The notes: generated by a model from the letters alone, not told the origin. Positions 1,860 to 59,087 are shown, numbered from the stretch's first letter. The stretch: DNA of 59,668 nucleotides from a virus (IMGVR_UViG_3300009163_000037:1-59668), one strand, 5' to 3'. A program made the numbers and translations.

Positions 1860-2049
1860 CGTCATTAGTTTTGAGTCTTTCCTGTAGGTCTGAGATAAAT
1901 AGACGCGCAGTGAGCAGACCTTTAACCTCACCACACATCTTCTTGTACTCCGAATAATCGTTGGCGTTGCCATCCGCCAGGGCTACTTGGAGTTGGGATA
2001 CTTTGTCTTCTATCTTTGACATTAGAAGTTGTAAATATTTGTCGTTCAT
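1852..2049 (-). CDS. small helical hypothetical protein
   Basis: 65 aa, overlaps portal stop and GroES start. Confidence 0.75.
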   Translation of the reverse strand: MNDKYLQLLMSKIEDKVSQLQVALADGNANDYSEYKKMCGEVKGLLTARLFISDLQERLKTNDDD

Positions 2050-4463: not shown

Positions 4464-4471
4464 ACTAATCC

Positions 4472-5971
4472 TTAGTAATAAGATACCTTGCGCCTAAACG
4501 AACGAATCTCATCTTGCTCGTCCGTTTGTAGGCGTATAAAGCCGCCTTTTCTGAACCTGATTAATGCTTGGGTGGCGGAGTCAACCAAGTCATCATGGTC
4601 TGAGTTAGGGAAAGCGGCCATCTCTTCCATTAGCTCGTCAGCCCAGCGGGTAGAGGGAGCCCATACTTTTCCACTAGCAAACAGATCAGATACAGAGTTA
4701 ATCCTCACCATCTTATCATTACCCCTGCTCGGCGTAAACTCCTGGACGGGGATCCCCATCGCTCTTAATTCAAAGATCAACGGGGCTCCCGAAGCTTTGG
4801 CCTCGACAATAAAAGCATCTGGCTCCCATTCCTTGTAATGGTTAAAGGCTTTCTCCTTTAGCTCAGGGAACTCCATCCGGCGTTTAAAAGCGTCGAGCAA
4901 AATGATGTGGGCGTCGTTCTCGTTCTCATTTAAATAAAACACCCCCCAGGTCGTGCAGGCAGAATAGTCAGCCCGTTCCGATTTTAAAAATGCGGTATCC
5001 CAGCTTTGGATAATAAATTCACACCGGGGGGGTTTATCCTCTTTCCATTCCTTCCACCACTCCCGTTTAACAATAGCCCCCTCCTCAGAGGTCGGGCTTT
5101 GCTGATACTGGGCGTTCCATTTTGAGGCGGGTAGTTCTGACCTTAAAGCCTCCAGCTCCTCTAGCTTCCAAAACTCAGGCCATAGGGGTTTATCACTAGG
5201 AAGGATCGCAGGGAAGTCGATCACCTCCCAGTCGTCGTTTCCTTCTTTATCAATAGAGGACTGAAGGATTCTTCCGGTCAGGTCTCTTTTGGCCCAGCGG
5301 GTCATAACTACAACAATAGTCCCTCCAGGCTGTAGACGTTGTCGTGGGCCAGATGTGTACCACTCGTAGACTTTGTCAAAGACAGAAGGATCTCCGGCGG
5401 CCAGGGCGGCTTCTTGCTCTGAGTGAGGGTCGTCAATAATCAGTAGATCCGCACCTTTACCGGTTACAGTTCCTCCGACTCCGATAGCGAAATATTCCCC
5501 ATCCTTATTAGTAGACCAACGTCCGGCGGCTTTACTGTCTTGCCTTAAACTTACGTTAGGGAAGATCTTGGAGTACTGCTCACTGCCAACAAGGTTCCTT
5601 ACCTTACGTCCAAACCCCACCGCAAGGTCAGCCGTATTAGATGTCTGGATAATCTTCTTATCAGGGTATTTACCTAGAAACCAGGCCGGTAGCATATAAC
5701 TTGCAAACTCAGACTTGGTATGGCGGGGTGGCATATTGATGATCAGGCGTTTGATTTTCCCGTTCACAACGTCCTCAAACTTGCGCGCCATCACTTTATG
5801 GTGCCGGCCATTAATAAACCCCGGCCACATTGAATGAACAAATTTTAAAAAATCTACCTGGGCTTCCTCTCGTACCAAACTTGACCGGTACTCATCTAGC
5901 TCGTCAAAGAAAGCCTCCTGCTCATTCGAGGGCAGAAGGGCTATCGCTTTACTTATGGCGTCAATATTCAT
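4472..5971 (-). CDS. terL: terminase large subunit
   Basis: Walker A-like NMPPRHTKS, Walker B LLIIDDP, RNase H-like nuclease SWDTA ... HDDLVDS. Confidence 0.95.
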   Translation of the reverse strand: MNIDAISKAIALLPSNEQEAFFDELDEYRSSLVREEAQVDFLKFVHSMWPGFINGRHHKVMARKFEDVVNGKIKRLIINMPPRHTKSEFASYMLPAWFLGKYPDKKIIQTSNTADLAVGFGRKVRNLVGSEQYSKIFPNVSLRQDSKAAGRWSTNKDGEYFAIGVGGTVTGKGADLLIIDDPHSEQEAALAAGDPSVFDKVYEWYTSGPRQRLQPGGTIVVVMTRWAKRDLTGRILQSSIDKEGNDDWEVIDFPAILPSDKPLWPEFWKLEELEALRSELPASKWNAQYQQSPTSEEGAIVKREWWKEWKEDKPPRCEFIIQSWDTAFLKSERADYSACTTWGVFYLNENENDAHIILLDAFKRRMEFPELKEKAFNHYKEWEPDAFIVEAKASGAPLIFELRAMGIPVQEFTPSRGNDKMVRINSVSDLFASGKVWAPSTRWADELMEEMAAFPNSDHDDLVDSATQALIRFRKGGFIRLQTDEQDEIRSFRRKVSYY

Positions 5972-10820: not shown

Positions 10821-10969
10821 AAGTTACATTCACTCATAGCCAAATGGAAGCATTCGCGATGGGTTACTACCATGCACGCACCGGCCAAGACGAGCAAAAC
10901 GACTACATGACGCCCCTAGAGATATGGACATACCATAGGGGCTACGACACCGGCAAACAGGCCGCTTAG
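10817..10969 (+). CDS. 50-aa Rmf/CrpP-like small protein
   Basis: AFAMGYYHARTG...NDY...YHRGYDTG resembles the Rmf-fold G-Y...Y...W/Y..G.. pattern. Confidence 0.45.
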   Translation: MKVTFTHSQMEAFAMGYYHARTGQDEQNDYMTPLEIWTYHRGYDTGKQAA

Positions 10970-11751
10970 AAGAAAGGGCGCAGGGACTCGGCTGCGGCCT
11001 CTGTCCCTACCCTCTGCTCGAAATCGTTGAAATCCTCTCCAGCCTCGCCTACCCAGTAGCGCGGGGCTATTTTTTTGGCAGCTCCAAGACCTACTGGATC
11101 GTTATCGGCGACAACGAAAGGGGACTGTATCCGGCTCCCGACTTCTATCATGTTCCCAGCTGAAAAGCAAACGTGGATTGTGTACCGCTGGCGCAGCTGC
11201 TTTAGCGCTCGACGCACCGACATACCAGTAGCCAGCCCCTCGACTAGGATATTCGGCCCCTTGTTGTCAATCGTCAGGCTGGCGCCTTTCGTTCGCTGGC
11301 CGGCTAAGAATCTCTTTTGACCATCCTCTTGGATCAGCTGGCAGCCAACAAGATGCCCATCGATGCGCATTGGGACTGCAATTTGCCTGTGCCACACCTT
11401 CACTTTGTCAGAAAATCCCTTGCGGATCATGTAGGGGTGCTGCTCAACTGTAACGCTGTTACAGATGAATGCCGCCCGCTTTGCTGCATCGGCTTGTCGT
11501 TCCAGTCGCTCTTTGTCGGCCAGCTGGCGCCTGATTCCCTCCATCGGATCAGGGATGTAAGGCTCGTCAGACCGGTAGAGAATGTGCTTATCGTGCATGG
11601 CAAAGTTAATCACCGCGCCCTTATGCCCATCAAAGATATACGCGCCATTGCGCTTTGCTGGCCGGTCAACTGTACCAACCCGCATCCACTTACCCAGCGT
11701 CAATCGGTCAATCAATAACCCATTGTCGCGGGCGAATTCTTCAAACGTCAT
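10966..11751 (-). CDS. Toprim-domain primase (no zinc-binding or helicase part)
   Basis: KRNGAY, HPYMIRKG, VPMR...QLI..DGQKRFL, VEGLATG, VADND, DFND. Confidence 0.85.
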   Translation of the reverse strand: MTFEEFARDNGLLIDRLTLGKWMRVGTVDRPAKRNGAYIFDGHKGAVINFAMHDKHILYRSDEPYIPDPMEGIRRQLADKERLERQADAAKRAAFICNSVTVEQHPYMIRKGFSDKVKVWHRQIAVPMRIDGHLVGCQLIQEDGQKRFLAGQRTKGASLTIDNKGPNILVEGLATGMSVRRALKQLRQRYTIHVCFSAGNMIEVGSRIQSPFVVADNDPVGLGAAKKIAPRYWVGEAGEDFNDFEQRVGTEAAAESLRPFF

Positions 11752-13211
11752 GCTTTACCTCTCGCCCATGCAATGTTACGGCTCTTAATCCAATCCAGTG
11801 TCTTGTAGCTGGGCGTCTTGATGACCGTGTCCAGGCCCCTAGGAAATGCGCCAAACTTCTCTTTGTACTTGTGCGCTGCCCATCCATCCTTGTAGCCCCG
11901 CATCCGACTGTAGTAGAGCACCTCGGAGTAAAAGGTTTGGTTGGCATTCACAAATCCCTTTTGGTTTGTGTCCAGCTCAATCATGCGGCCTGGAACGTTC
12001 TGCACTTCTTTTGATGGGCGCGTCCAGCCGCACTCGCCACAGATTCGGTCAGGCCATATCCACAACGCGCCGCACTTGCCGCACTTGGCTTCTTTCTTGA
12101 CCTTCTCGGTGGGCTCTTTCTTGGCCGATTCGCTCTTGTCCTTCAGATCAGTCACGCCCTCGGAGAACAGGTTATCCCAATCCTTTCTGAACCTGAGATA
12201 GTTGCCCGAATGATCCAGCCACACGCCGTGCGTCTTGCCCTCGCAGGGGCGCATGATGCGGCCCATCTGCTGGACATGGCTAGAGAACGACTTGGAAAAC
12301 GGGCGGGCAGATACGCCTATCAAAACGTCAGGCACATCAAACCCTCGCGTCAGGATATCGGTGGCTATCAGGCCGGTGATCTTGGTATCAGGCCGGCTGA
12401 AGTCTTCAATAGTCTCGCGCTTGAAGTCATCCTCTTCTTTGTAGCTGATAGACACAAAGTTATAACCGCGTGAGTTGAACTGGCGAACCAGGTCTCGACC
12501 ATGCTCCACACCGGAGGCAAAGACCACAGTCTTTTTTGGCCCGCCGAATAGCTCATTAGTCTTGTTAATCCACTCGTCAACTATATCGCCGGTAATCTTC
12601 ATGCCCCGCTCGGACACTTCATCCTGAGACCACTCGCCGGCCACTTTCTTGGCGCCGGTCATGTCGATTTCTTTGGCGATAAACACTTTCAGCGGGACTA
12701 GCCACTTCTCTTCAATCAAATCACCGGTAGGTTTGGCGCCTACTACGTGGGTGTAGGTATCACCCAGCCCCGCCGTGAAGGGCGTGGCAGTCAACCCTAT
12801 CACCTTGATATCGGGGTTGTCTTGAATGAATTTGATTACTTGCTTGCGCTGGACATGGCACTCATCAATGATGAGAAGGCCGACATCAGGGAAGTCAGAC
12901 CTACGCTCCAGGGTTTGCGCGCTGCACACTTGTATGCGCTCGTGGGGCCGGTATCGCCAATGCCCCGACTGCATCACGCCGTGACCGATGCCGTACTTAG
13001 ATAGGCGCGTGCTGGTTTGGTTGACCAACACAATCCTATCCAAGACCATCGCTACTTTGATGCCCTTCTTGGCCTCTTCGACCATGATGTGCATCGCTAC
13101 TTCTGTTTTGCCAAACCCTGTAGGTGCGTACAAGAGTTGGCAGCGGTGTTGGGAAAAACCCTGCGCGAGTTTCTCCACCACATCCGCCTGATGTGGCCTT
13201 AGATTTATCAT
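11748..13211 (-). CDS. superfamily-2 DExH helicase with C-terminal Zn ribbon
   Basis: APTGFGKT, IIDECH, GLTATP, LTRGFDVP, QQMGRIMR, CGKC...CGEC. Confidence 0.92.
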   Translation of the reverse strand: MINLRPHQADVVEKLAQGFSQHRCQLLYAPTGFGKTEVAMHIMVEEAKKGIKVAMVLDRIVLVNQTSTRLSKYGIGHGVMQSGHWRYRPHERIQVCSAQTLERRSDFPDVGLLIIDECHVQRKQVIKFIQDNPDIKVIGLTATPFTAGLGDTYTHVVGAKPTGDLIEEKWLVPLKVFIAKEIDMTGAKKVAGEWSQDEVSERGMKITGDIVDEWINKTNELFGGPKKTVVFASGVEHGRDLVRQFNSRGYNFVSISYKEEDDFKRETIEDFSRPDTKITGLIATDILTRGFDVPDVLIGVSARPFSKSFSSHVQQMGRIMRPCEGKTHGVWLDHSGNYLRFRKDWDNLFSEGVTDLKDKSESAKKEPTEKVKKEAKCGKCGALWIWPDRICGECGWTRPSKEVQNVPGRMIELDTNQKGFVNANQTFYSEVLYYSRMRGYKDGWAAHKYKEKFGAFPRGLDTVIKTPSYKTLDWIKSRNIAWARGKA

Positions 13212-13247: not shown

Positions 13248-14045
13248 TTACGCAGCTTTATCTGCTCTGCGTTTCCAGTAATTAATCTGCTTGATCATCT
13301 CTGAATTCTTAGACATGAATTCATCACGGCTTTGAGTTACAGAGGCAAGCTGTGCTTCCAGTTCCCGCACTTGCTCACGCAGCGATTCAATGGTCTCTTG
13401 AACCTCGGCCTGGGCCTCCTTGGAAACAGGCAGCGATCTTACTGCAAGAAGATCTTTGAGCTTGGTGTTTTCATCAGAAATTACAGAAAATTCTTTCTTG
13501 ATTTCTTCAAACTTATCTTCTTCTTCAAACTCTTGAACGGGCGCTACTTTACGACCAATGTTTGTTGTGTCCCTGCGTTTGCCATCCTTGCCAACAGTGC
13601 TGGACTTCTCAAGACCCAAAGCTTTGCGAACGCGACCAACTGTAGCTTTGCTCACCTTGCACACATCTCCGATTTGAGAGTCCGACAACTCACCTAGCTC
13701 TATGTCTTCAAGAGCCAGCCGGACTACATTGCGGGCCTCTTCTGCGCTGCGTGGCTTGCCGTGTTCAGCATTAGCTGCAAGGCTTGCGATAAATGCATCA
13801 CGTTTGGTGCCTTGCTGGACTATAGCGTTGACATCTTTGTATCCAGCGCGTTTGTGTGCGTGCCAGCGGTGGAATCCATCGGAGAGCCAGTAGTTCTTGC
13901 CGTCAAAGTGCAGGTCTACTGGTGGAAATTCTTTGCCCTCAAGCATTGCTTCTGTGTAGTGCTGGACTAGGCTATCGTCCAACTCTTTGCGTGGTTGTGT
14001 TCCGCCATCTAGGCGGATCTTTGTCAGCAGGATTTTCTCAGTCAT
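13248..14045 (-). CDS. ParB-like protein (ParB/Srx N-domain, HTH, C-terminal coiled coil)
   Basis: TQPR, FPPV, LSDGFHRW (GxxR), AANAEHG, HTH SDSQIGDVCKVSKATVGRVR. Confidence 0.8.
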   Translation of the reverse strand: MTEKILLTKIRLDGGTQPRKELDDSLVQHYTEAMLEGKEFPPVDLHFDGKNYWLSDGFHRWHAHKRAGYKDVNAIVQQGTKRDAFIASLAANAEHGKPRSAEEARNVVRLALEDIELGELSDSQIGDVCKVSKATVGRVRKALGLEKSSTVGKDGKRRDTTNIGRKVAPVQEFEEEDKFEEIKKEFSVISDENTKLKDLLAVRSLPVSKEAQAEVQETIESLREQVRELEAQLASVTQSRDEFMSKNSEMIKQINYWKRRADKAA

Positions 14046-17500: not shown

Positions 17501-17958
17501 TTCTTTATTCCTTTGGTGCGTGCGTAGTAAGCTCTTGCGTATGCGTTTTTCTTTTCACGCTGCGCCTTTATTTTTTGCTCTTCTTCTTTCTTGGCTTTTT
17601 TCCTTGCGTTCCACTCACGTTGATACTGACGTTTCTTTAACAGTTTTTCGTTTGCCTCAGTATTAACCTCAACCTGGGGAAAAACTGGCAAGCGGGGGTC
17701 AGGGGCAGCAATGGCTGGTTTTGGCTGGCGTGATTGCTTGTAAACCTCATGTTCCAGATTTTGTAATCTTTCGGCAAAATTCTCCTGCTTGCGAATCAAG
17801 GCTTGATTTGAATTTACTAAAAGCTGATTTGCGTTTTCCAGCTTATTCAGCCCCTCCTTCAACTGCAAAATCCATTGGCTGTGATCGCGGTTAAAGTCCG
17901 TCAAGTCTTTTAACTGCTGCTCAAGAACTGTAACTCTGCTATAGATGTTCCACTTCAT
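17497..17958 (-). CDS. coiled-coil protein with very basic C-terminus
   Basis: 153 aa; KKRQYQREWNARKK...AYARAYYAR. Confidence 0.7.
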   Translation of the reverse strand: MKWNIYSRVTVLEQQLKDLTDFNRDHSQWILQLKEGLNKLENANQLLVNSNQALIRKQENFAERLQNLEHEVYKQSRQPKPAIAAPDPRLPVFPQVEVNTEANEKLLKKRQYQREWNARKKAKKEEEQKIKAQREKKNAYARAYYARTKGIKK

Positions 17959-18158
17959 TTCTTTTCTCCTGAAAATTTGGCAATATGGTCATTGAGGCGT
18001 TCAATCCTTACCTTGTTGTACATGACTATGCTCTCAGCGTAATCCACTGCGGTTTCAGCCTGGAGCATCTCCAGCTGCGCCTCAGCGAGCTCTCTGCTTA
18101 CCACCTCCAACGGGGTGGGTTCTCTTAGTTTCTCTTGCATCAACTGTAACAATTTCAT
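17955..18158 (-). CDS. hypothetical protein, first gene of the replication operon
   Basis: AGGAG SD before ATG 18158. Confidence 0.65.
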   Translation of the reverse strand: MKLLQLMQEKLREPTPLEVVSRELAEAQLEMLQAETAVDYAESIVMYNKVRIERLNDHIAKFSGEKK

Positions 18159-18176
18159 AGCTTTCTCCTGTTTGTA

Positions 18177-18206
18177 AATGTAACTCATGAATCAGCATCG
18201 TGTCAA
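18177..18206 (-). promoter_or_regulatory. sigma70 promoter of the replication operon
   Basis: TTGACA-N18-TACATT on the minus strand just upstream of the SD. Confidence 0.6.
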
Positions 18207-18224
18207 CTGTTGCATCATCATGCC

Positions 18225-18650
18225 TAAGCCCTCTTACCCGTTGACCCTCCCTCCCCTGGACTTGGGCGCTGGATGGCTAACGACTCTTTATCAAGGTGCC
18301 ATGACTGGTTTTTATGCAGTCTTATCGGCCGGCCAAGCCGCCCTCCCCTGGAATCCCGATAAAGCCAGTTCTCACCGGCTTGTCGATCATCTCCCAGCGG
18401 ACTAGGGTATGTGTCATTACTGACAACCTTGTTTATTCCTTTTTGCTTACGCTACTTCGGAGGTGCGGGTCACACCGAGGTTCTGTCTTTTCTTCCACGC
18501 TGGCGATACAACCACTTGCTAACGGATGGAGTCCGGTCGCGGTCGCCAACGAAAAAAGCCGTTACTACTGCACTGGGTCGCTCCCCCAAAAAAAGGGGCC
18601 AATGCATGAGTAACGGCTTTCAATCTGTTGTGAGCGACTACAACAGTTAC
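18225..18650 (-). ncRNA. candidate structured non-coding RNA or RNA-primed origin
   Basis: No credible ORF; several long stems with G-U pairs favouring the minus strand; loop-loop complementarity; G-tract cluster at the 3' end. Confidence 0.5.
18552..18620 (-). terminator. long branched terminator-like hairpin (possible attenuator)
   Basis: AAAGCCGTTACT/AGTAACGGCTTT 12-bp stem ending in a 6-U run, plus an 8-bp upper stem. Confidence 0.6.
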
Positions 18651-18702
18651 AACTATACACTATTTTTGGGTAGCGCAAGCTTTTTTTAAAAATATTTTTG
18701 GA

Positions 18703-18723
18703 GACTGTATCAGCGATACAGTT
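18703..18723. promoter_or_regulatory. copy of 21-bp palindromic motif
   Basis: gactgtatcagcgatacagtt, upstream of the non-coding element. Confidence 0.65.
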
Positions 18724-18724
18724 G

Positions 18725-18752
18725 AAAAGAACCCCCCAGAAGCCCGGGGGGT
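18725..18752 (-). terminator. intrinsic terminator after nuclease gene
   Basis: acccccc-gggcttct-ggggggt followed by tctttt on the minus strand. Confidence 0.6.
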
Positions 18753-18790
18753 AAAGACTCTGTAAAAGAGTCAAGGAGACAAGCAAGTCT

Positions 18791-19105
18791 TCATTCTACA
18801 TGGATTATTTTGACTTCCCAACGATTATTTTTCTTTTGCCAGCCGTGAACCTCTATCTTTATCCCTGAATCACGCACGATGTCCAGGTTCTCGTGAGCCA
18901 GGATCTTCTTCAGCCGGTCTGATGTGTGGCCCCAGCTGGTCGTTTGGACGCCGATCACCGCCCCCTGGCCCAGGCACAGGATGTCAATGAAGCCGGCAAA
19001 GTCGTTCTTGCGCTTGGTGAACGAGTTGTACCGCTCCACCACCTCTGCGTAGAAGCCGTTGTCCCTCATGTACTTGAGGCTGCGCTGCGTAGTTGTTACC
19101 GCCAT
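18791..19105 (-). CDS. small PD-(D/E)XK-fold nuclease (resolvase/VRR-NUC-like)
   Basis: DFAGFIDILCL...IGVQTTS...IEVHGW pattern; start at MAVT. Confidence 0.6.
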   Translation of the reverse strand: MAVTTTQRSLKYMRDNGFYAEVVERYNSFTKRKNDFAGFIDILCLGQGAVIGVQTTSWGHTSDRLKKILAHENLDIVRDSGIKIEVHGWQKKNNRWEVKIIHVE

Positions 19106-19125
19106 AAATATTTTTCCTAGGGGGG

Positions 19126-19155
19126 TTGCAAGACATGATATACTATGGGTACAAT
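19126..19155 (+). promoter_or_regulatory. sigma70 promoter of the recombination operon
   Basis: TTGCAA-N18-TACAAT in divergent intergenic gap. Confidence 0.6.
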
Positions 19156-19190
19156 GTGTGGCCCAACCACCTAATTCTACAGGATAAAGC

Positions 19191-20066
19191 ATGATCATCA
19201 CCAACAAGTACAACCTCCCGCAGACGTTTGTGAACGTCTTGAAGCGGCCAACTTACTCTAAGGGTAAGTCCAACATCTCTGCTACAGAGCTGATCTCTTC
19301 CCCTCGCATCGTCCAGCTGCGTAAGCTGCACTCTGAAGAGATTGAGCAAGACGTTAGCGAGATGGTCTGGTCTATCTTTGGCACGGCCATTCACGGCGTG
19401 CTGGAGCATGGCAGCGACGAGAACCACCTTGTTGAGGAGCGGCTGCACGCCACAGTCGATGGCTGGTCTATTTCCGGCGCCATTGACCTTCAGATCGTCA
19501 ACGAGGACGGAACTATCACAGTGAACGACTACAAGACTGTGGGTGCCTGGAGCGTAATGAACGAGAAGATCGACTGGGAGCTTCAGCTGAACATCTACGC
19601 ATGGCTGGTGCGCCACGTTAAGAAGAGCGATGTCAGCAAGCTGGAGATCGTAGCCATCATCCGTGATTGGAGCCGCCGTGACGCCGCCATCAAGGCATCC
19701 TACCCTGATGCCCCTGTCAAGGTCATCCCTGTCCAGCTGTGGTCTTTTGAGAAGCAGCAGGAGTTTATTGAGCAGCGCATTGAGATGCACTCTAACGCCC
19801 TGTTCGACTTTGAGACCGGCGACGAATTGCCGCACTGCACCCCTGATGAGATGTGGGAGAAGCAGACCACCTACGCGGTTAAAAAGATTGGTGGAGTCAA
19901 GGCACGCAATGTCTGCGACACCAATGAGGAAGCTCAGGCCAAGATGGCTGAGTATGGGAAAGAGTACGAGATAGAGGTGCGTCTGGGTGAGCGGACGCGC
20001 TGCGCTAACTTTTGCTCTGTGAGTAAATGGTGCAATCAGTACCAAGACTATTTAAAAAAGGAGTAA
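19191..20066 (+). CDS. Cas4-like PD-(D/E)XK exonuclease
   Basis: SATEL, GTAIH, SGAIDL, DYKT, QLNIY, C-terminal RCANFCSVSKWC. Confidence 0.85.
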   Translation: MIITNKYNLPQTFVNVLKRPTYSKGKSNISATELISSPRIVQLRKLHSEEIEQDVSEMVWSIFGTAIHGVLEHGSDENHLVEERLHATVDGWSISGAIDLQIVNEDGTITVNDYKTVGAWSVMNEKIDWELQLNIYAWLVRHVKKSDVSKLEIVAIIRDWSRRDAAIKASYPDAPVKVIPVQLWSFEKQQEFIEQRIEMHSNALFDFETGDELPHCTPDEMWEKQTTYAVKKIGGVKARNVCDTNEEAQAKMAEYGKEYEIEVRLGERTRCANFCSVSKWCNQYQDYLKKE

Positions 20067-20245: not shown

Positions 20246-20935
20246 ATGGTACATAAGAAACTGATGGAAGCGCGGGTAAAGCTTCTGCACACAAAGTTAA
20301 AGAAGAGCGGGCAGAACAAATTTGCTGGCTACTATTACTTTGAGCTTGGAGACTTCATCCCCGAGATCCAACTAATCTTTAATGAGCTGGGCCTGTGTGG
20401 TGTTGTGTCGTATGACGCAGCCTACGCAACCCTGACCATTACAGATATAAGCGATGGCACTTGCATCGTGATCACCAGCCCGATGGCCGGTGCTGAGCTG
20501 AAGGGCGCACACCCTATTCAGAACCTTGGTGCAGTTGAGACATACCAGCGCCGTTATCTGTGGATGACAGCGATGGAGATTGTCGAGAATGATGTAATTG
20601 ACGCATCCCCGCAAAAGGAGCCGGCCAAGGAAGTCAAAGCAGAGCCAAAGGTAGAGCCACCCAAGCGCGTTAAAGGCGATGTGCTGCCACCGCAGTACGT
20701 TGACAAAGACCCAGGCTGGACGATTCACATTACTGGTGAAGGCGAGCCCTACAAGAAAGTGCTAACTGAAGCTACAAAACTAAAGCTTTTCTTTGCAAAG
20801 AATGATGAGGACGTTCGCAAGATGTTCCAAATCAACCGCAAACTCTATGACGCAGCCAAAGCAGAAGACCCCGCCTTCTACGAGGAACTATTAGAGTTGT
20901 TTACTGAAACCAAGAAGAAATTTACACAGGACTGA
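20246..20935 (+). CDS. erf: ERF-family ssDNA annealing protein
   Basis: KKSGQNKFAGYYYFELGDF, IQNLGAVETYQRRYL, EIVEND. Confidence 0.85.
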   Translation: MVHKKLMEARVKLLHTKLKKSGQNKFAGYYYFELGDFIPEIQLIFNELGLCGVVSYDAAYATLTITDISDGTCIVITSPMAGAELKGAHPIQNLGAVETYQRRYLWMTAMEIVENDVIDASPQKEPAKEVKAEPKVEPPKRVKGDVLPPQYVDKDPGWTIHITGEGEPYKKVLTEATKLKLFFAKNDEDVRKMFQINRKLYDAAKAEDPAFYEELLELFTETKKKFTQD

Positions 20936-22489: not shown

Positions 22490-22760
22490 GTTGTTAGACG
22501 CTGCGCGTGAGCTGCCCTGCCAGCACTGTCAAACCCAAGACGGTACGGTGGTGGCCGCTCACAGCAACCAGCTGCGTGACGGAAAGGGGCGGGGCCTCAA
22601 ATCCCACGACTACAGAATAGCGTCACTCTGTTACAGTTGCCATGCCGATCTTGACCAGGGAGCCCGCATGAGTAAGGCCGAAAGACTTGAGATGTGGGAG
22701 GAAGCACACCGCAAGACAATCGGCCTTATGTTTGAGCGAGGAATTATTGGGTTGCTCTGA
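22473..22760 (+). CDS. YbcO/DUF1364-like Zn-binding nuclease
   Basis: CQHC...TVVAAHSN...GKGRGLK..D...LCYSCH..LD. Confidence 0.75.
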
Positions 22761-25700
22761 CTTTGTCGTTGAACTCTTTCATCCTTTCGGTCTTTCTTTC
22801 GTCAATTTTCTTAATCTCTTCTTTAGAAGCCTTGCGCTCAATTGCAAGACGTTTCTCTTTGTTGAGCTTGCTAACGTCCCTTTGGGCAGCGTTAGCTTCT
22901 TTCCACATAAAGGCGGTTGGATTAGCCTTCATGTATTTATCAGTGGGCTCTTTGTTTGTTTCCCGCTGTTTAATCTCATGCTCAAACGTATTCATTCTCT
23001 CTAGGTTGTCATAGAACCTGGACGAGATAGCGGCAGGAGTTTTTGTTTCGCCAAGGAACTTACCAGCAACTGGAACCCGATACATTGGCTGCTCTTCACC
23101 TGCGACTTTAGCCCTAACTGATTCACCAGCTTTAACCATTTCACGGAATACACCACCAAAGTACTGCTCAGCCAAGTAGTCCAGCTGGTCTGCTGTTGGG
23201 CTAATCTTTCCTTTTGTATGCAATGTTCCAGCCGGAGAGGATGACCAGTTAAGGAAATAAGCAATGCCTTTACTGATGGCGCTTGCGCTTTCCCGTGAAC
23301 GCTCATAGCCAGGGGTCTCCTCGCCTGGGCGGTCTTTCCTTGCAATTGGCCGGCCAAACGCATCTTGATTCATTAAAACGTTTGCAATTGGATCTACAGG
23401 GGTTGGCATAATCTGCTGCCAAGAGGCGCCAATACCCAGTGGGTTTACAGAATCCAGCATCATTGGAAGAATATCAAAGATCTTGTCGGAAGCGGTTTCA
23501 TTGCTCTTCATCATCTTTGTTTTGATCATGAATGCTTCTGTCAGCATACGACCAATTCCAGGCAGCATACTAAAGCCTGGGGGGTATGGCGGATACATAA
23601 CAAAGTACTTACCACCACCGGTTGGAACAACAAACGCTTTTGCTTTAACAAACTCCGGTGGATCATCATCATCAAAGCCAGCAGCCGCCAATACTAAGGC
23701 TTGCATAATGCCAAGCCCAATACCTGAAGCAATGATTGCTTTTCCTTTTGGCCCTGTCAAAACTTTTTTGACTGTTACCGCGCCTTGAATGCCAGGGTTA
23801 ATAAACGAGAACCACGTTTGAAGTTTGGGAACTACTGCTCCCTTTTTATCAAAATTAAGGGTTGCGTTCTTAGACAAGCTTGCGCCCTTGTCATCACTCA
23901 TGCCGTTGTCAATGACTGCAACCTTAAACACGGCTAAGCGCACGGCGCCTTCCATTGAATCGTTATAGTCAGACAAATATTCAAACAAGTAATGGAGGCC
24001 AGCATTAATTTTGCCGCGATCCATTTCTGCAAGTTTTTTATCAAGCAGACTGAGTTCATCAGTAGTTGCTCTAACGCTCAACAGTCCTTTGATTCCCCAG
24101 CCCTTTTCCAATTTCTCAAGCCTGGTTTTTTGCTGAATAAAGTTTGCAGTAATTCCAGTGCCGCCGCCAGCCAGCTTCCAGCGACGATGTAGATCACGCC
24201 ATTCTTGCGGGCTTAACTCACCCTTCTCAAATACTTCATTTCCTTCACTCTTATCCCAGCCACGTTGATTTTTATAGATTGCAGCCATTGCAGGAAGAAT
24301 GCTCTTTCTAACTTTATCTTGTTGACCAGCAAGCTCTGTTGTTGTGAGCTGAAGCATTCCAGTGCCAACGTCACGGCCAAAGTTAAAGAAACCAAAAATT
24401 GGGTTGTATTGCGTATTAATAGCGGATATCCAGCGCGTGATCATCCCAGCAGTGCCAAGAAAAATGCCCAGCTTTTCAACGTCTAGGTTTCTTAACGACT
24501 TGACCATCCGCAGCGCGCGCTCATCACTTGGGTTAAAGATGATGAACCAGTCCTGACCATTAATACGAACAGGGAATACGTTGTCCATGCTACGCATAGC
24601 GGGATTTACAGCATATTTAACAAGGCCGGTTTCTTTATCAATGGTTGGAGTCTTTGGCTCTTGAATCATGTTCTCTGCTTCATCCGCAGATATACCAAGA
24701 GACTGAACTTCTTCTTTAAACTTCTTAATGCTTTTTAATGCATTAGGATTAACTGGCAACCAGAAGTTTGGATTTGGGTTTGTCAGCACCAGCCCCATCA
24801 ATGATTTGCCAATACGGATTTTTTCTGCTCTATCAATAGCGCGTTTACGCTGCAACACAATGTTTTGCAAAATGTTTGCAACGTCTTTGGTTGAACCAAA
24901 AGCGCGTTTAGAGAATGATCCCCTGGTTCCAAACCCTCCACCAGTGCCTACACCATGATGGACAAAGTCCAGGTCTTCACGCTGCAATGGAACATAGTGC
25001 TCGTATGCAGTGTTCCATGAGTTAACAGTATCCTGAATTTCAGCGCCAGACTTAACCAAAATATCCTGAGTTCCATCAACAATGCCATCAAACATCTTGG
25101 CAATTTTGTTATAGATTTTTAGCTTGTCTTGTGGAAGCTCCGTCAAGTACTTGAGCGCGTCTTTTGTCGTGATGCCAGATCCGCCATCGGGTAATGATGG
25201 GTTGATTTTGGCTACTTGTATGTTGCGCTCTTCAGCATGACGGTTATGCATATATGCCTCAAGCTCAAGAATGCTGACTTTGTTGTCATACATTTCTTTA
25301 ACAATCGGCATGATCTCATCATCTATAAAAACTTCTTCACGCGCAGCTTTACGGCTAACATAGCTTTCGTTTTTAAGATAAGGATCAATCTGTTCGTTAA
25401 CCAGCTCGCCACGAACCTTTCGGATTTCCTGCATAACACTCTTAAGGTCATGCTGCTTATCAAGGAAGTTATAAGCAAAGGTATCCATTGCGTTTGGTAT
25501 TGGCGCCTCAAACACCGGCTCTGGAGCTTCGTTGCCCCTAAAGTTCTTGCGTTCAATGGAGAAGTAATCACCCTCACCCAGCATATTGTGGGTAATAAGC
25601 TTGCCGTCAGATTTTGCAAGACTATCCAAGGCGCGGATAATTGACGCATCTGAATTTAAACCAAATATTGACTTGATCTTCTGGCCTAATTCTTTAAGCC

Positions 25701-28700
25701 AGTTTTTTAAGCGCGCAAGTATGCCACCCTGTACAGCGTCATAACGGCCCTTAACAACATCAGAGCCATTTACAGCCCAAAATTCAGATGGGTTGAAGTA
25801 CTCATAATGCTCTTTTGGAACCATACCAAGAACAAGCATTTCTCTTGCAAAATCTGCACTAGATCCACCATTTTGCAAAGCCTCCAATGTGGCCTTTATT
25901 TGTTCGTAGATTTTTTCTGCACCTTTGGGAACCTCTATTGCGCCCATATGGTTATTTCCATAATGGGATTCCATTAGCGCAGCAAAGAAAAGCTTTTCAT
26001 TGGGCGTCTTGGCATTCTTATTAGCCTTTGCCAACTGGGATGCCCAGGCTTTGCGAATGGCCTGTTGAACCTTGGCTGGCATCATGCGCTCAAGGTGATG
26101 CAAGATCTCGTGTACTGTTGTTAAATTAGATCCGCCTTCTTTAATAAGAGTCATTATGCGTCTATAGGCGTTGTATTGCCCACCTACACCAGCCTTACTT
26201 TTACCAACAATACTAATACCCAGCCCCTCAACTAAGCTTTCGTTTTGCACCATAAACCAAGTAGCCAAATCACGAGCTTCACGGGTAATATCGCCAGACA
26301 AAACAGCTTCATTCAATCTCTTTTGAATGTGCAAGAAACCGCGTTTGCGTTCAGCAACATCTTTTTCAGATTGAAGTTCTTCATCCGCAAGAATAGCGGC
26401 ATCCGATCTTTCAACATATTGCTCATCGGTCATGCGACCATCTTTGCGCATTCGGTTGTAAGTCTTTAAAGTACGCTTTAAAGAGGTGGAGCGTTTTTTC
26501 TCTTCTTCTTTAACGTAACCATCAAGGCTATAAAAGTTTCTTTCTTTTGGCTCTTTTGGTTTTCCTGGAGCCTCTTCTTCAGTCTTAACCTCAAGCTTGG
26601 CTACCTCAGTCTCACGGCCAGCCACCTTGCGCTCAACCTTCAGCTGGGGCGCAGCTGGCTTTTCTGCTGGGCCTAGAACCTCAACTTCAGGATCGCGAAC
26701 CATAACCTTGTTAGAGTCTTCAGCAAAGTCAAACCCAAACTTCTTGTACAGGTCTTCCAGCTGCTGGCTATCAAGGCCAAAGTTCTTTTCCTTGACGTTT
26801 ACAAGGGGAACCGGCTCAATGTAGAGAGTAACTCCATACTGGTCAGCGGCATCAACGATGTTTTGGAGCGCCTCGTTGGCCTTCCCCTGGTTGCGCTTGG
26901 CCTGGTCTACCAGCAAAGCATTGATCACCAGGTCGGTGGACTCACCCTGACCTGTCAGGACGGCATTCTTGTTCTGGAATAGGACAAGCTGGGGCGTTAG
27001 CGAGATACGCACGCCGTCTTTCTCAAACGTACGATGGGGCTCGCCACCTTTGTCAACGTAGGTGCGCGGGTTATCAAGAGCCAACACCTCGTAACCGTCA
27101 TTGAACAGCACGGAGGCCATAGGGTAGCGTAGGTTGCGTCCCTCTGGCGTTTCTACGGGCTTAGCCTCCTCTTGTTTGCTTATGTATCCAAACTTTTCAG
27201 CATTTTTTATTGATTTTGCATCCATTGATAAAGGAATATTTTTAACCCCAGAATCACGCAGATATGCATATCTATGTCGCCCATCTCCAAAAACGATAGC
27301 TCCATTTTTATCTACGGAAACATTTGGTGCCTCTATAGATTTTGCATCTTTAATAAATTCTGCAAATTTTTTGTATCGGCCTTCTATCCCACCCTCTCCG
27401 CCTTCGCCAACATATTGCCATGTTGTTTTGGAAAAGGCTTTATCAAAAACATCAGTGTTAACTTCAACTAATTGATTTCCCTTTTCCAGTGGGTGCATTG
27501 TTACTGGAACATCTTTTCCATTAACTTGAATAACATCTTCAGTTTTTGCGGGAGTTTTTTCTTGCTCTTGCTGGAACGCTAAGTCAAACTTTTTCATGGC
27601 GGCATCGTAAACTTTACGGCCTGCCAAGAATTCATCATCACCAATCTCTTGAGCGCGATAAGCTTTTTGTATTTTTTCAAATTCTTTAATGGCTACATTG
27701 GATTCATCCAACGCTTTTTGGTACTCCTTTGATGGAGGCACTTCTTGTATTTCTTGTTTTCCATTAATTATGTAACGGGCGATAGTGGCTGCTTCCTCCA
27801 AGTCACCATCGTAGTACTTGTCTTGGAATTCAGAGCTGTCAATGGCTTTTTCATCAGCCTCTGTAGCGCCATCAAATGCATTGGGATCAACGCCGTAATA
27901 GGTGCGAGTCAAGCGCTCAGCTGGCGTCATGCTCTCAGCATTGTTAGCCATGAAGAATGCATAAGCAAATCCTTCAGGCGTCAACGAACGGGCGTACTTG
28001 TCCTTGCCGCTTAGTTTGACTATCTTTGAACCTTCAGTCGGCTCAACAGGGGCCATAGGCAGATCATTGTCAAAGTTACCCCACAGCAGGGTTTTCTTTG
28101 TGTATGGATCGCCGTAGTAGTTGGGATCAAATGTTAGGTGAGCTGGCGGCAGATTGTTCAGCTTTGCAATACGGCCAACAGGGTTCTCCATTGCCCAGAT
28201 CTTTGGCTGGAGAAACTCAACTGTACGCAGTACTTGTTTTACTAGCTCATTGCTAATCTCTGTCTGTCCTTTGGCATCTTTCTTGGCCCAGAACTGAGCG
28301 CCTGAAGAAGCAAAGTCTGTGCATGGAGGGGCTGCAAGAATGCCCCAGATTTCCATATCGCCAAATCCTTCGTTAAGAAGGTACTCTGCACCAAAGTCGT
28401 TAATGTCTTCGCCTGTTTGGATATCAAAGGTATAGACACTGTAGCCGGCTTCTTGCCAGGGCTTAGCCCACTCACCAGACGCATCAAACAGGCTCATGAT
28501 TGTCCTGTTGAAATTCTTGCTGGTCTTGCCTTGGCGCTTGGCTTCTGCTTTCCATTCTTCTAATTGAGCTTTGGCCTCTTCAGGCGTCAGCATTTCGGTT
28601 GGTTTAGGCTTTGCAGGATTTTCAGCCGCGTGCATCAATGCGTTATAACGAATGTCAAACGGATTTTCTTCATCCCGCGTTTTGCTTAACAGCTCACCAA

Positions 28701-31614
28701 CAGTGGAGGAGTCGGCTTCAAAAGGAACAATTTTAACGCCTTCTTCTTCAGGAGCCTCTTCAGCAAGAAGATCTTTCTGCCCACGCGCAGCCGCAACATC
28801 AGCAGCACGATCACTGCCTGTTAAAGTAAATTCACCAACCTCTTTGTCAGCCTTAGCCCTGTCTTCAGCCTCTTTATTAGCCTTAGCTTCAGCGGCCTCC
28901 GCTGCCTCTGCCTTGTTACGATACTCTTCTTTGGCCCTTAATCCTTCTGGGGTTGGTTTAGTAAGCGTTTCTCCTTCATCTGGCTCAGAAGGTGGAATCT
29001 TGCTTTCGGGCTCAACGCTGCGAGCATTGATTTCACCCTCTCTTTGTTCGTCTGCTGCTTTTTGAAGCTCAAGATTTTGCTCCTCAGTGGTTAGGTAATC
29101 GTTAACAAGTTCTTCTGCGTCTTTAACAGAACCAAATATTGTTTCAATCTCTACTTGTGCGTCATAAGGAATGTAGTCCGCTGAACGCATCTTGTCTTTG
29201 ATGTACTCTTCTGCGGCCTGACCGTCAAAGTTAGGGACATCTGTCCGCATTTTGTACGGCAAAAATTCATTTAGGTCTCCATCTGAAACCATGTCTGCAA
29301 TTGATTTGCCGCCTTGTTTAGCTTTAAGCTTCTTTTGATAAAGCTGTGGCTTTTTACCAAACAGCTCAGCCATATCGGAGTCACCTAGCTTGCCGGTCAA
29401 CGCTGACCACAAACTAAGTTTTGGACTACCTTTAATCTGGCTAATATCTCTTTCACCTTTTGCAACTCGCGTTTCAGCATCAGCAACTTCTTCTGGCTTG
29501 GGAACAGCGCGGCGAATTAATTGCTGGGCTTGTGCAGCAGAGTCGTTGGCACGCTTGATTGCAAGATTGAATTTTTCTGGATTAGCGCGTTTTTGATCGT
29601 TTTCCAGGGCGTAGTGGCCCGACAAAAGCTGCAAACCATCAGACAATAAATTGCTGTATTGGGTCTTTAAATTACCCAACCCTAAAGGAAACTTCTTATC
29701 GTTAACTTGATAGCCAAGATTATTAAGCGCTGTGGTTATATCTTGGATAGATGAGCTTACTTTTTCAAAAGCAGCTTTTGCTTCAGGTGATGCCGTCTTT
29801 TGAAATGTATCGTAATACTTTTGTTCATTAGGCTGCAAAAACTCAGACCATTTAAAGCCTTCTTCTTTAGCCTCAGTCTTGCCTTGCTTTGCCTGAAACT
29901 CTTGTAACTTTTCTTTGTAAAAGGGAAGGGAGTTTTCTTTCACCATTCCTTTTGAAAGGCTTCCGCGCATTGCATCCGCAAAACCCTTTTCACCAGCGGC
30001 CTCTATTTGATCCGCAATACCAGATACCTCTTGCTCAAATGGAGTCAAAGTCTTTTTGGGAGCTTTCTCTTTGTACTCTGCATCAATGCGCGCCTTCTCA
30101 GCTTCAAGCCTATCGTACTGCTCTTGCGTAATACGGCCTTCTCTGACGGCATCTGGGGCTTTAGCATATGCAGAGTCAATTAATTTCTTTTGCTCTTCAA
30201 TTGGGCGCTCACCCAGATTGCTTAGCGTTAGTCTTTCAGCAGGGGCTGCGGGCGCTTGTTGTCCTTGCGCTTCTGCTTCGACGGCTTTAGGGGCTTCAAC
30301 GGCACTTGGGATTCCTTCAATAGAAACAGGGGTTGGGGTAGTTGGAGCTTGCTCCTCCATTTGCTTGCGAACAAATGGGCCAGTCTCTGCAACTGTTGGT
30401 TGAATTTGAGCTTTAGGTTCTTTAACTGTCGCAGCTGATACAGTTGGTTTCTCTCCTAGCGCTTCACGCAGCATAGCCTCCGTATCCATAGACTCGGAAG
30501 GGGCAGCTGCAAGCGGGCCTTTGCTTGGAGCTACAGGCGGCACTCCAGGCGGCGGTGGAACTTCCGCTTCAGGGGCTCCAGGCGGGGCTTTCCTTCTACC
30601 GGCCAGGGCAGTAGCTCCAACACCCATAGCGCCACCAGTCACTATGCCCATACCACCGGCTTCAGCAGTTCCCTCCATTAGCGGTCTGCCTTGGGCGTAG
30701 TTCATCCACATCTGCTCTTGAACAGACTGTGGAAACTCCTCAAACAAACCTTCAGATACGCCCGCAGCGGAGGCTCTTAAGGCAAAGTCTTTAACTGATT
30801 TTGCTCCACCCATAGTGGAGCCACTAGCCAGCAATGTATCTATATCATCAAGTCCAAGCTTGTTAGCCAACTTGCCGCCAGCAATACCAAACGCAGCTGT
30901 ACCTAAGCCGGAACCTACAGCTGATGCAACCTGCTTACCACTTAGTAGTTGGTCTTTTGACTCTTGGCGCATTTGCTCTGCTGCACTACCAGCACCAACT
31001 ACACCCTCGCCCAATGCGCCTGCCAAGTAAGGCGCCAAAGCTGGGGCTGCTTTCATCAAGCCTTTAGCTACTCCTGCGCCGCCAAGCATTGATGCCAATG
31101 ACTCTATTCCTGCTTGAGCAACAACACTTGGGTTTTCAAGTGCGGCGCCTACTGTAGGAAGTAAACCTTTTGTTTCACTTACCCGGCGGCTGGCAGCTTG
31201 TTGGGCCTCGGAGTAATAACTGTCCAAAATTTCCTTAGCGTCTTTAGGCTTAAACCCAGCGTCTTGCAAAAGTTTGCCGGCGTAACCCATTGTTGGCAGG
31301 TCAGCCACACCAACAGCAAATTCAGGAACAGCAATTGCACTTTTAAGAAACGCAATCCCAAGATCTTTAGTTGTACCGGAAAGGGTGCGTTCTGGGATTT
31401 CTTGCTTTCTCTTTTCAACAGCAGCCAAATAAGCATCCCTGCCCATGCCAGTAATCTGGCCCTCAACATTTTTTGTGATGGCGCTGGCCCCTGGAGATGG
31501 CGCAGGGCTCCAGCTACTAGCAGCAATCTGCTGTAACTCTAAATCCGTAGCATCAGCTGGCCCTTCAATATTGAGAATGGAACCGTCAGGAGCTTGGACT
31601 TTAAAGATAGGCAT
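22744..31614 (-). CDS. giant polyvalent virion/ejection protein: C5 DNA methyltransferase-like, ParB-like, GNAT, zincin HExxH and LPD38-like domains
   Basis: [21 protein letters not shown] (MTase), GDGRHR (ParB), KRNQGKA...LYKKFGF (GNAT), HEILH (peptidase); Gly/Ala-rich N-terminus. Confidence 0.8.
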
Positions 31615-58178: not shown

Positions 58179-59087
58179 TTACGCTCCAGCGGAACCGTAC
58201 ATACCCAGGGGGTCAGACCAGCCGAACGAATAACGTTCGCGGGCCTTGTAACGGACGTTTCCGGTGTCAAAGTCACCGTCCATGCCAGTCGATAGCGGGC
58301 TACGCACAAAGTGCTTCATGCCGTTAGGAACGTCGGTGGTCAAATACCAGCCGTTGCTGTCGGTCAAGAAGTGGTTAATTGTGTAACCGCCAGGGATAGA
58401 ACCATTGTTCTTCAACGCATTGATATCGTTATCAGTGGTGCCGACGCGGAGTTCGGTTTCCAGCAAACGAGTAGCAACGAATTGCAGAGCAGGAGGAACA
58501 ATCAGCTTCTTGGGCTTAGCGGCAATCAACAGGCCACGCTCATCCGTCCACAGGGAGATCTGAATAACTGCGTTTTCCAACGAAGTCTCATTCAAGTCAG
58601 CTGCGGTCGCAGGAATGTTGCTGTTAGTACCACCAGACACCAGGGGGTGAGCGCTGTTGAACAGAGAAACGCCGTCACCGCCGACATAAGCCGAGGAGAA
58701 ACCGTTATTTAGAACAGCAGCAGCTTTAACCTGCTTGGTGTACGCCATAGCGCGAGCCAGACCTTTGGTATAGCGAGCCGACAAAGAGTCATAGAGGTTG
58801 TCCTCAATAGCCTCTTCAGTCAAGCTGAAGCCCAAAGCAATGGTTTCGTGGTTGTAGCGTGCAGTCCATGCCTCTTGAGCATTGTCATAAGCAAGAGCGG
58901 AGCCCTCGTTTTTGACAGGTGCAGCAGAGAAGCCAGACAGTTTAGTTTCCTCTTCAAAAGAACGCTCAGAGGTCTCTGTTTCGTAGATCTCGTCGTGTTC
59001 TTGATCGTAGGTCTTATATTGCAGACCGAACAAGGCGTTAAGCCCTGGAAGCAACTCTTTAAGTAGTTGTGCGCGTGAAATAGCCAT
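58179..59087 (-). CDS. major capsid protein (HK97 fold, Mu gpT-like family)
   Basis: MAISRAQLLKELLPGLNALFG, KLIVPPAL, DFDTGNVRYKARERYSFGWSD; strong codon bias; own terminator. Confidence 0.9.
   Translation of the reverse strand: MAISRAQLLKELLPGLNALFGLQYKTYDQEHDEIYETETSERSFEEETKLSGFSAAPVKNEGSALAYDNAQEAWTARYNHETIALGFSLTEEAIEDNLYDSLSARYTKGLARAMAYTKQVKAAAVLNNGFSSAYVGGDGVSLFNSAHPLVSGGTNSNIPATAADLNETSLENAVIQISLWTDERGLLIAAKPKKLIVPPALQFVATRLLETELRVGTTDNDINALKNNGSIPGGYTINHFLTDSNGWYLTTDVPNGMKHFVRSPLSTGMDGDFDTGNVRYKARERYSFGWSDPLGMYGSAGA

Follow-up and report, generated by a model that had tools for sequence, protein, structure and literature searches.

The genome of a tailed dsDNA phage, present in IMG/VR as a virus record of 59,668 bases with an estimated completeness of 94% and analysed over its whole length (hereafter, the window), contains a gap of about 600 nt between the gene of a 140-aa protein (18791-19213, minus strand) and a series of small genes on the same strand. 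The question raised by this locus is what the gap encodes. In a preliminary description, the stretch 18225-18551 was regarded as an ORF-free structured element ending in a canonical G-quadruplex, and two readings of it were offered, namely, an RNA-primed origin of replication and an independent large phage non-coding RNA. Alignments and covariation showed that positions 18226-18537 of the minus strand, lying inside this stretch, are a conserved, non-coding, structured RNA, which was named RNA-A.

Genes of the portal protein (2046-4463), terminase (4472-5971), primase (10966-11751), helicase (11748-13211), a ParB-like protein (13248-14045), Erf (20246-20935) and the major head protein (58179-59087) were found in the window. 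The nearest cultured phages by terminase are the Pelagibacter phages HTVC027P (55% identity) and HTVC023P (54%). In agreement with the preliminary description, the genes of the window include no recognised polymerase or initiator; helicase, primase, ParB-like and Erf proteins are all that was recognised in this respect. None of the small ORFs downstream of the gap in the window belongs to a function-annotated family. A single ORF of 2956 aa (22744-31614, minus strand) is located at the start of the structural module. Below, L-numbers (L003, L004 and so on) are labels of the loci of relatives; P1 and P2 denote both helices of RNA-A and the promoters flanking it, which are kept apart by the words ‘helix’ and ‘promoter’.

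RNA-A is non-coding. No open frame is kept among 106 trimmed homologues, the minimum longest open stretch being 17-29 aa per frame; indels of 1 nt (696) and 2 nt (65) were found along with only 9 of 3 nt, and a 3-base periodicity of variability is absent. The ORF-free character claimed earlier thus extends to the homologues, and coding-type conservation, which the preliminary description had set beforehand as evidence against its own proposal, was not found in these 106 copies. In comparison with nine relatives, the DNA identity is 86-93% for RNA-A versus 80-90% for the neighbouring protein gene and is higher for the RNA in all nine.

In total, 115 distinct copies of RNA-A were found on viral and freshwater metagenome contigs. 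Of 24 viral loci found via the neighbouring 140-aa protein, 14 align over the element, three over the leader only and seven nowhere. A search with the G-tract pattern gave 46 viral contigs, and 66 real ones were among the 68 obtained with an independent pattern of the 5' core. A looser 3' pattern gave 68 loci; the 5' motif is also present in 64 of these, while two of the remaining four are cut by contig ends and two are chance matches. A metagenome scan gave 95 stretches with RNA-A, and the public DNA runs carrying the element belong to 16 studies, with lake, river, freshwater and salt-marsh samples. One genome per species of 185,579 prokaryote species gave three matches, all by chance. RNA-A is present in a single copy per contig and in a single genomic context.

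Covariance models of Rfam 15 gave no matches in the window at the gathering score; at E <= 10, only hairpin-type chance matches were found in the region 17900-19000, outside 18225-18548. The loci of 20 relatives yielded a single tRNA and nothing else at the gathering score, and L050 1-760 gave no real match. No paper containing the motif strings of RNA-A was found, and 701 nt around the element had no match in the phage genome collection. RNA-A is a new family of structured non-coding RNA, about 270-330 nt in length, in a mostly freshwater lineage of uncultured tailed phages. Its conserved, covarying, non-coding minus-strand structure, belonging to no Rfam family, supports the second of the two readings offered earlier, an independent large phage RNA.

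The fold of RNA-A is represented by a model of 64 pairs, hand-curated from the alignments and counted on a MAFFT-only alignment of 69 representatives with less than 96.5% identity. The proportion of paired cells is 93.4% versus 85.1 +/- 0.3 in shuffles, and the covariation score is 0.256 versus 0.122. Changes on both sides were found in 20 of the 64 pairs and in 311 cells (94 +/- 8 in shuffles), counts which overstate independent events because the sequences are related; several helices (helix P1, P4 and P9) have three to five pair types despite this kinship. The paired fraction, the number of double-changed cells and the covariation score were each reached by none of 500 shuffles, and in a control with the 3' partners slid by 1-3 columns, the covariation score was only 0.023-0.064. 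The single-sequence fold of the minus strand is modest (z = -1.68, 4 of 100 shuffles equally good), and that of the plus strand is no better than shuffles (z = +0.40). G-U pairs are frequent on the minus strand, where the other strand would have A-C (for example, 247:261 UG35/CG33), and together with the poor fold of the plus strand they identify the minus strand as the RNA strand. The structure that RNA-A adopts on the gene strand comprises several helices.

The 5' domain (18495-18529, minus strand) consists of helix P1, CCAU(C)/(G)GUGG, around the hairpin P1a, UGGU[UGUAUC]GCCA. Its pairs (helices 1 and 2 of the model) include 25:60 GC47/CG22, 26:59 AU43/CG22, 27:58 GC49/AU16/CG4 and 42:53 GC57/AU8, and in 4 of the 69 rows (L027, L079, L182 and L195) the domain is swapped for another sequence. 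The hairpin of helix P2, GGUG[UGACCCG]CACC (18462-18476, minus strand), is recognised by covariation and by an invariant 7-nt loop; pair 82:92 is UA43/CG26 with no exception, and the loop is unchanged in 69 of 69 rows. P3 (UCC/GGA; 18437-18461, minus strand), delineated by covariation and alignment reading, has the pair 97:117 CG54/UA14/UG1 and encloses P3a, capped by a GNRA tetraloop. Read from the alignments, P3a is GC[GUAA]GC in the window versus GA[GCAA/GAAA/GUAA]UC in relatives; no double change appears there in the pair count, because MAFFT misplaces a gap. P5 also has a GNRA cap in many copies.

The domain closed by P4 (18292-18431, minus strand), a 6-bp long-range helix of 18426-18431 with 18292-18297, holds P5, a variable peripheral arm, P7 and P9. 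Four of the six pairs of P4 (helix 7) change on both sides, namely, 127:273 AU50/GC19, 128:272 GC50/CG19, 129:271 GC61/AU7 and 130:270 AU43/UA18/CG3. P5, P7 and P9 covary as well, with five pair types at the P9 pair 246:262, and the long peripheral arm, in which a UNCG-type loop is present, has three architectures. The junction GAUAA(A/U)GAG (18284-18292, minus strand) is invariant except for the A/U position. A putative P0 (helix 3) may form between the GAG of this junction and CUC at 18477-18479; it is 100% paired and never varies. Invariant bases are the only basis of P0, of P6 and of a candidate pseudoknot, in which the invariant loop of helix P2 (ACCC) would probably dock on the invariant 3' GGGU.

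Two smaller motifs were also named in the preliminary description. The 12-mer TCCAGGGGAGGG occurs exactly twice on the minus strand, at 18249-18260 and 18341-18352, as the claimed direct repeat requires (0 expected from 100 shuffles); the exact repeat is peculiar to near relatives of the window, and GGGGAGGG is all that other relatives share. The 9-bp stem CGTTGGCGA/TCGCCAGCG is present in the window and partly used by the single-sequence fold, but it is not conserved across relatives: its 5' arm is mostly unalignable in the 69 relatives, 55% of cells pair, and its TCGCCA arm belongs instead to the covarying 4-bp hairpin P1a. The preliminary description had made its proposal depend on conservation of both stems and G-tracts; while the stem failed in this respect, at least four G3 tracts are present in 115 of 115 copies, with exactly four in 15 of them.

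The G-tract itself, GGGG-A-GGG-A-GGG-UCAAC-GGG-UAAGA-GGG, was found as described earlier at 18229-18256 of the minus strand. Its tracts 1-4 lie within the long terminal hairpin P8 (18239-18282, minus strand), where they face a pyrimidine-rich 5' strand (18271-18282) and a second pyrimidine run. The strand right after GAUAAAGAG pairs with GGGUCAACG, and GGGAGG pairs with the second pyrimidine run, located directly ahead of the G-run; the G-tract is the 3' strand of P8. In this helix (helix 15 of the model), 85.2% of cells are paired; two pairs change on both sides, and 7 of 12 vary on one side, with C or U opposite an invariant G. In per-sequence folds, on average 78% of the G-tract bases pair with the upstream strand, and compared with a shuffled partner the P8 domain has z < -2 in 63 of 106 sequences. 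Changes of the tract are rare and are compensated in the partner: UCAAC is replaced by UCUAC and GUUGG by GUAGG in L133 and L210, UCAAC by UGCAC and the partner by GUGUG in L135, and GGGAGG by GGGUGG together with CCUCCC by CCACCC in L135 and L210 or by CCGCCC in L133.

The stretch 18237-18256 is the only canonical motif of four runs (G3+N1-7 x4) on either strand of the window. In a first-order Markov simulation, a window contained 0.65 such motifs on average and four at most, so the single motif is not beyond chance, and it is conservation that makes it real. The fifth GGG of the tract is not conserved; GGGUAAG is present in every copy found, but every search or extraction contained or required part of this stretch. 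The loops of a quadruplex would vary freely, with no competing strand, whereas here both the A-to-U and the UCAAC variants are compensated in the pyrimidine strand. A quadruplex-aware energy model placed a G-quadruplex in the minimum-energy fold of 53 of 69 representatives (mean dG -105.3 versus -102.0 kcal/mol), and on such modelling a quadruplex, or a switch of the tract between duplex and quadruplex, is possible. The locus is a cautionary case, in which a perfect, fully conserved quadruplex motif proves to be one strand of a covarying helix.

Two other partners of the G-tract were rejected. A long-range pairing of the invariant C-rich 5' core with the G-tract (CUCG..UGACCC..CCUCC), predicted by RNAalifold, was not accepted as the main fold, since it clashes with the covarying helix P2 and P3; its CCUCC:GGAGG part has no both-side change and is uncompensated in three GGUGG variants. 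Some clades hint at a pseudoknot between the pyrimidines ahead of the G-run and the tail AGAGGG; it was left out, because such low-complexity strands pair in several registers.

RNA-A is flanked by two promoter-like sites. Behind the intrinsic terminator of the upstream 140-aa gene (18731-18752, minus strand), detected by a terminator scan and conserved in aligned relatives, lies a conserved site, TTGCGC, with a 15-nt spacer, TATAGT and TG just upstream of the latter (18652-18678, minus strand). It was not reported by the consensus scan of the window, being weak there and clear in relatives, most of which have TTGCCG-N17-TATAGT; by its conservation this site, promoter P1, is probably a promoter. 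It is followed by leader hairpin 1 (18625-18646, minus strand), folded with a 7-bp stem and an 8-nt loop, the stem of which, judged by eye, differs in sequence yet is complementary in relatives, and by a long leader hairpin with U6 (18550-18621, minus strand), similar to an intrinsic terminator. The long hairpin has a folding energy of -46.8 kcal/mol (z = -5.86, 0 of 200 shuffles equally good), a conserved basal stem and a variable tip, and a run of at least five T precedes RNA-A in 103 of 107 copies. This conserved leader of about 110 nt (18550-18678, minus strand) is the ‘attenuator’ of the preliminary description and is also present in L004 and L016, which lack RNA-A. On the other side of RNA-A, promoter P2 of the downstream operon, TTGACA-N18-TACATT (18177-18206, minus strand), reported earlier, was found again by the consensus scan. 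A sigma-70-type promoter-like site is located no more than 110 nt (about 11-68 nt) after the element in 87 of 99 copies with flank, by a loose pattern, and a same-strand Shine-Dalgarno site with an ORF follows RNA-A in 98 of the 99. The first downstream genes have 11 different five-residue starts among these 99 copies and differ between clades.

In the late leader of phage lambda, PR'-qut-6S RNA-tR', a promoter directs a short, strongly terminated transcript, and the genes lie beyond the terminator. By analogy, the leader of the phage could be a small RNA gene itself, or an antitermination-controlled start of this type. The likeness applies to the leader and not to RNA-A, and no Q-like or N-like gene was identified in the window.

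The slot between the leader and promoter P2 does not always contain RNA-A. In L004 and L016, where both are kept, RNA-A is replaced by an unrelated conserved non-coding stretch of about 370-390 nt, named RNA-B, and an HNH ORF of 112 aa (L004 3810-4200 and 4201-4539; L016 about 4110-4505). The left junction of RNA-B is exactly at the 5' edge of RNA-A, and RNA-B had no match in Rfam. The flanks of L004 are 88-95% identical (BLAST) to those of L003, which carries RNA-A, and the BLAST rows of L005 are the same as those of L004. RNA-A is a discrete cassette between the leader and promoter P2, and the occupation of its slot by RNA-B and the HNH ORF in close relatives makes an essential origin less plausible and favours a self-contained RNA gene cassette. 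Like RNA-A, RNA-B may be a new structured RNA, in this case linked to a free-standing homing endonuclease. Differences between the RNA-B sequences of L004 and L016 look compensatory by eye. In L116, a natural deletion has removed the 3' third of RNA-A together with promoter P2, and what is left of the RNA runs directly into the Shine-Dalgarno site of the first gene, which suggests that RNA-A may be dispensable.

These data bear directly on the origin proposed earlier. In ColE1 RNA II primer and in mitochondrial CSB II, a structured transcript contains a G-rich stretch, and the G-rich strand is the non-template one. A transcription-primed origin of this kind would imply that the G-rich transcript from promoter P1 engages the C-rich template in a persistent R-loop or a hybrid quadruplex, that its 3' end primes replication and that the leader hairpins act as a gate. 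RNA-A is similar to these systems in the G-rich stretch of a structured RNA behind an upstream promoter-like site and in the non-template position of the G-rich strand; the terminator-like gate, the G3 tracts kept in every copy, the energetically competitive quadruplex (53/69 folds) and the lack of a recognised polymerase or initiator gene also agree with an origin. Unlike ColE1 RNA II and CSB II, however, RNA-A contains within the same RNA a conserved, compensating partner strand for its G-tract, which neither a quadruplex nor an RNA-DNA hybrid would require, and its covarying helices, GNRA loops and invariant junctions show that the fold of an RNA is under selection. Near relatives do without RNA-A: it is missing from L004 and L016, and L004 has replaced it without swapping any replication gene. 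The promoter search, a consensus scan covering 17800-19000 on the opposite strand, found no plus-strand promoter-like site, hence no sign of an antisense regulator RNA as in ColE1. No iterons were seen. The element is about 4 kb from the replication genes, and GC skew, suggested earlier as a check, was calculated and follows gene orientation only, being uninformative as an origin signal. The data do not support an R-loop origin with a G-quadruplex at its end, since the tract is base-paired with compensation and the element is replaced in close relatives, and a transcription-primed origin is considered highly unlikely.

The alternation of RNA-A with RNA-B and the HNH ORF, with sharp junctions, also raises the possibility of a mobile or homing cassette, in which RNA-A would be the RNA component of a selfish element, the remains of one, or a target displaced by the HNH element, and would have no role in infection. 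Next to RNA-A, a tRNA and other non-coding elements bounded by hairpins are present in some relatives and absent from others, and RNA-A was found in only 14 of the 24 relatives obtained via the neighbouring protein, as would be expected of such a cassette. However, RNA-A itself comes with no nuclease, transposase or reverse transcriptase, its single copy per contig and single context do not resemble those of a mobile element, and strong purifying selection has kept its unpaired bases invariant across clades. This explanation is regarded as very improbable.

The constant position of RNA-A ahead of genes suggests a third possibility, a cis-acting leader. RNA-A would then be a structured 5' untranslated part of transcripts from promoter P1, either sensing a signal or terminating, insulating or stabilising read-through before the early operon; for example, P8 and a later U-rich run could stop polymerases short of promoter P2. 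Strand and position upstream of the operon are constant in 98 of 99 copies with flank, the element comes after a promoter-like site and a hairpin resembling an attenuator, a U-run follows soon after the tail in many copies (GGGCUUUU), and the invariant junction bases resemble a ligand pocket. The direct fusion of a gene to the RNA remnant in L116, with the 3' part and promoter P2 deleted, likewise fits a cis-acting leader and implies that upstream transcription reaches the genes. Nevertheless, a riboswitch or another cis-acting leader is expected to have no promoter between itself and its genes, whereas an intervening promoter-like site is present in 87 of 99 copies, including the window (18206-18177); the genes behind a riboswitch are functionally related, whereas the first gene behind RNA-A varies, with its 11 different N-terminal 5-mers, unlike in riboswitch regulons. 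Moreover, the spacing from hairpin to U-run is about 10 nt and the window has only UU, the same first gene lies behind a quite different cassette in relatives, and a multi-domain fold of 300 nt far exceeds the needs of an insulator. A cis-acting leader is accordingly a tentative alternative, deserving attention yet rather unlikely.

The cassette swap and the rich fold favour a different reading, to which about an even chance is given: RNA-A would be a self-contained structured RNA gene cassette, transcribed by read-through from promoter P1 and acting as RNA early in infection. Host RNA polymerase would start at promoter P1 and pass the leader terminator by leak or antitermination, with the result that RNA-A is transcribed; its compact fold would be cut free and persist. 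Early in infection, RNA-A would then function by itself, as a binding partner or mimic of some component of the host or the phage, and would be neither a primer nor a switch for the gene behind it. Transcription of RNA-A would depend on read-through, because no promoter was found for the element itself, which lies behind a strong hairpin resembling a terminator. Contigs over RNA-A were found in four RNA libraries of four studies, from which ends, strand and level cannot be read and in which DNA carry-over is possible; one contig of 270 nt spans exactly 18226-18495, and another continues into the downstream genes, while uncovered parts and relative depths of these contigs were given no weight. 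Like the lack of its own promoter and the deletion in L116, two further facts speak against the self-contained cassette. Promoter P2 is constantly adjacent (87/99), a constancy that a trans-acting RNA leaves unexplained, and quadruplex potential is present in all 115 copies and in most minimum-energy folds (53/69).

A bolder extension, which is speculative and judged quite unlikely, would make RNA-A and RNA-B swappable ‘RNA-only early genes’, exchanged in the manner of protein genes for anti-defence or host takeover, with an invariant G-tract kept because it serves two states. If true, phages of this lineage would carry, right behind the first early terminator, self-contained folded RNAs of ribozyme-like or protein-mimicking complexity. 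The tract would form P8 in the mature RNA and a quadruplex or R-loop during synthesis, 60-90 bp upstream of promoter P2, and would thus couple read-through from promoter P1 to the firing of the early operon.

To our knowledge, few large structured phage RNAs have been described, and almost none with a function. RNA-A is small enough for probing and structure solution, and its comparative support is unusually strong; its replacement by an unrelated RNA in one slot is a natural experiment on the purpose of such RNAs. Of the RNAs described so far, the ornate phage RNAs GOLLD and ROOL come closest to RNA-A, which is alike in kind but a member of neither family. According to parts of their published description (PMC12286853), ROOL env-120 has 659 nt and many GOLLD members exceed 800 nt, GOLLD combines a conserved 3' core with a replaceable 5' domain, and GOLLD env-38 is located downstream of a Met-tRNA. 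Similar to both RNAs, as far as these parts of PMC12286853 describe them, RNA-A is phage-encoded, has an elaborate multi-helix fold with candidate pseudoknots and lies in a zone of other non-coding RNAs; similar to GOLLD, its 3' core is conserved and its 5' domain can be replaced. A tRNA-Met about 270 nt upstream of RNA-A in L012 recalls the Met-tRNA near GOLLD env-38 in the same parts of that paper (PMC12286853), with a tRNA found in one of the 20 loci scanned. In contrast to GOLLD and ROOL, RNA-A matches neither Rfam model, has about 300 nt and occupies a fixed position between two promoters. A comparative screen of IMG/VR yielded, according to the sections of the article considered, 8,495 candidate structured RNAs (PMC10690425). 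RNA-A is similar to those described in these sections as a covarying motif in contigs of uncultured phages, many of the candidates being upstream of genes; six sample numbers gave no match in part of the supplements of the screen (PMC10690425), and RNA-A might still be among its candidates.

The surroundings of the RNA-A slot are variable. Among 127 distinct regions upstream of RNA-A, 70 have, directly ahead of RNA-A, an element of about 90 nt, designated element X, which is bounded by a hairpin, contains the conserved cores GGGTTAGCGCC and CACTGCTTCATGTG and is sometimes present twice; it is missing from the window. Examples are L050 (about 330-430) and L034 (about 350-460); element X had no match in Rfam. 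In L032 and L056, its place between the leader terminator and RNA-A is taken by about 200 nt of inserted sequence, the ends of which form a long inverted repeat, GTGTTATCCGTTCTGGATA ... TATCCAGAACAGATAACAC. Farther upstream, between the terminator of the upstream gene and promoter P1, one to three hairpin elements of the form CATGGGGATTG ... CAGTCCCCAGCCGTGTTGG with a variable interior are inserted at about window position 18698 in L003, L007, L013, L015, L016, L017 and L018, and none is present in the window itself. The tRNA-Met gene of L012 (1689-1763) lies in this variable zone just upstream of promoter P1. In L071, the gene ending just ahead of promoter P1 resembles, by eye, a helix-turn-helix regulator of the XRE type; if it is of this type, it would fit a repressor-controlled early promoter.
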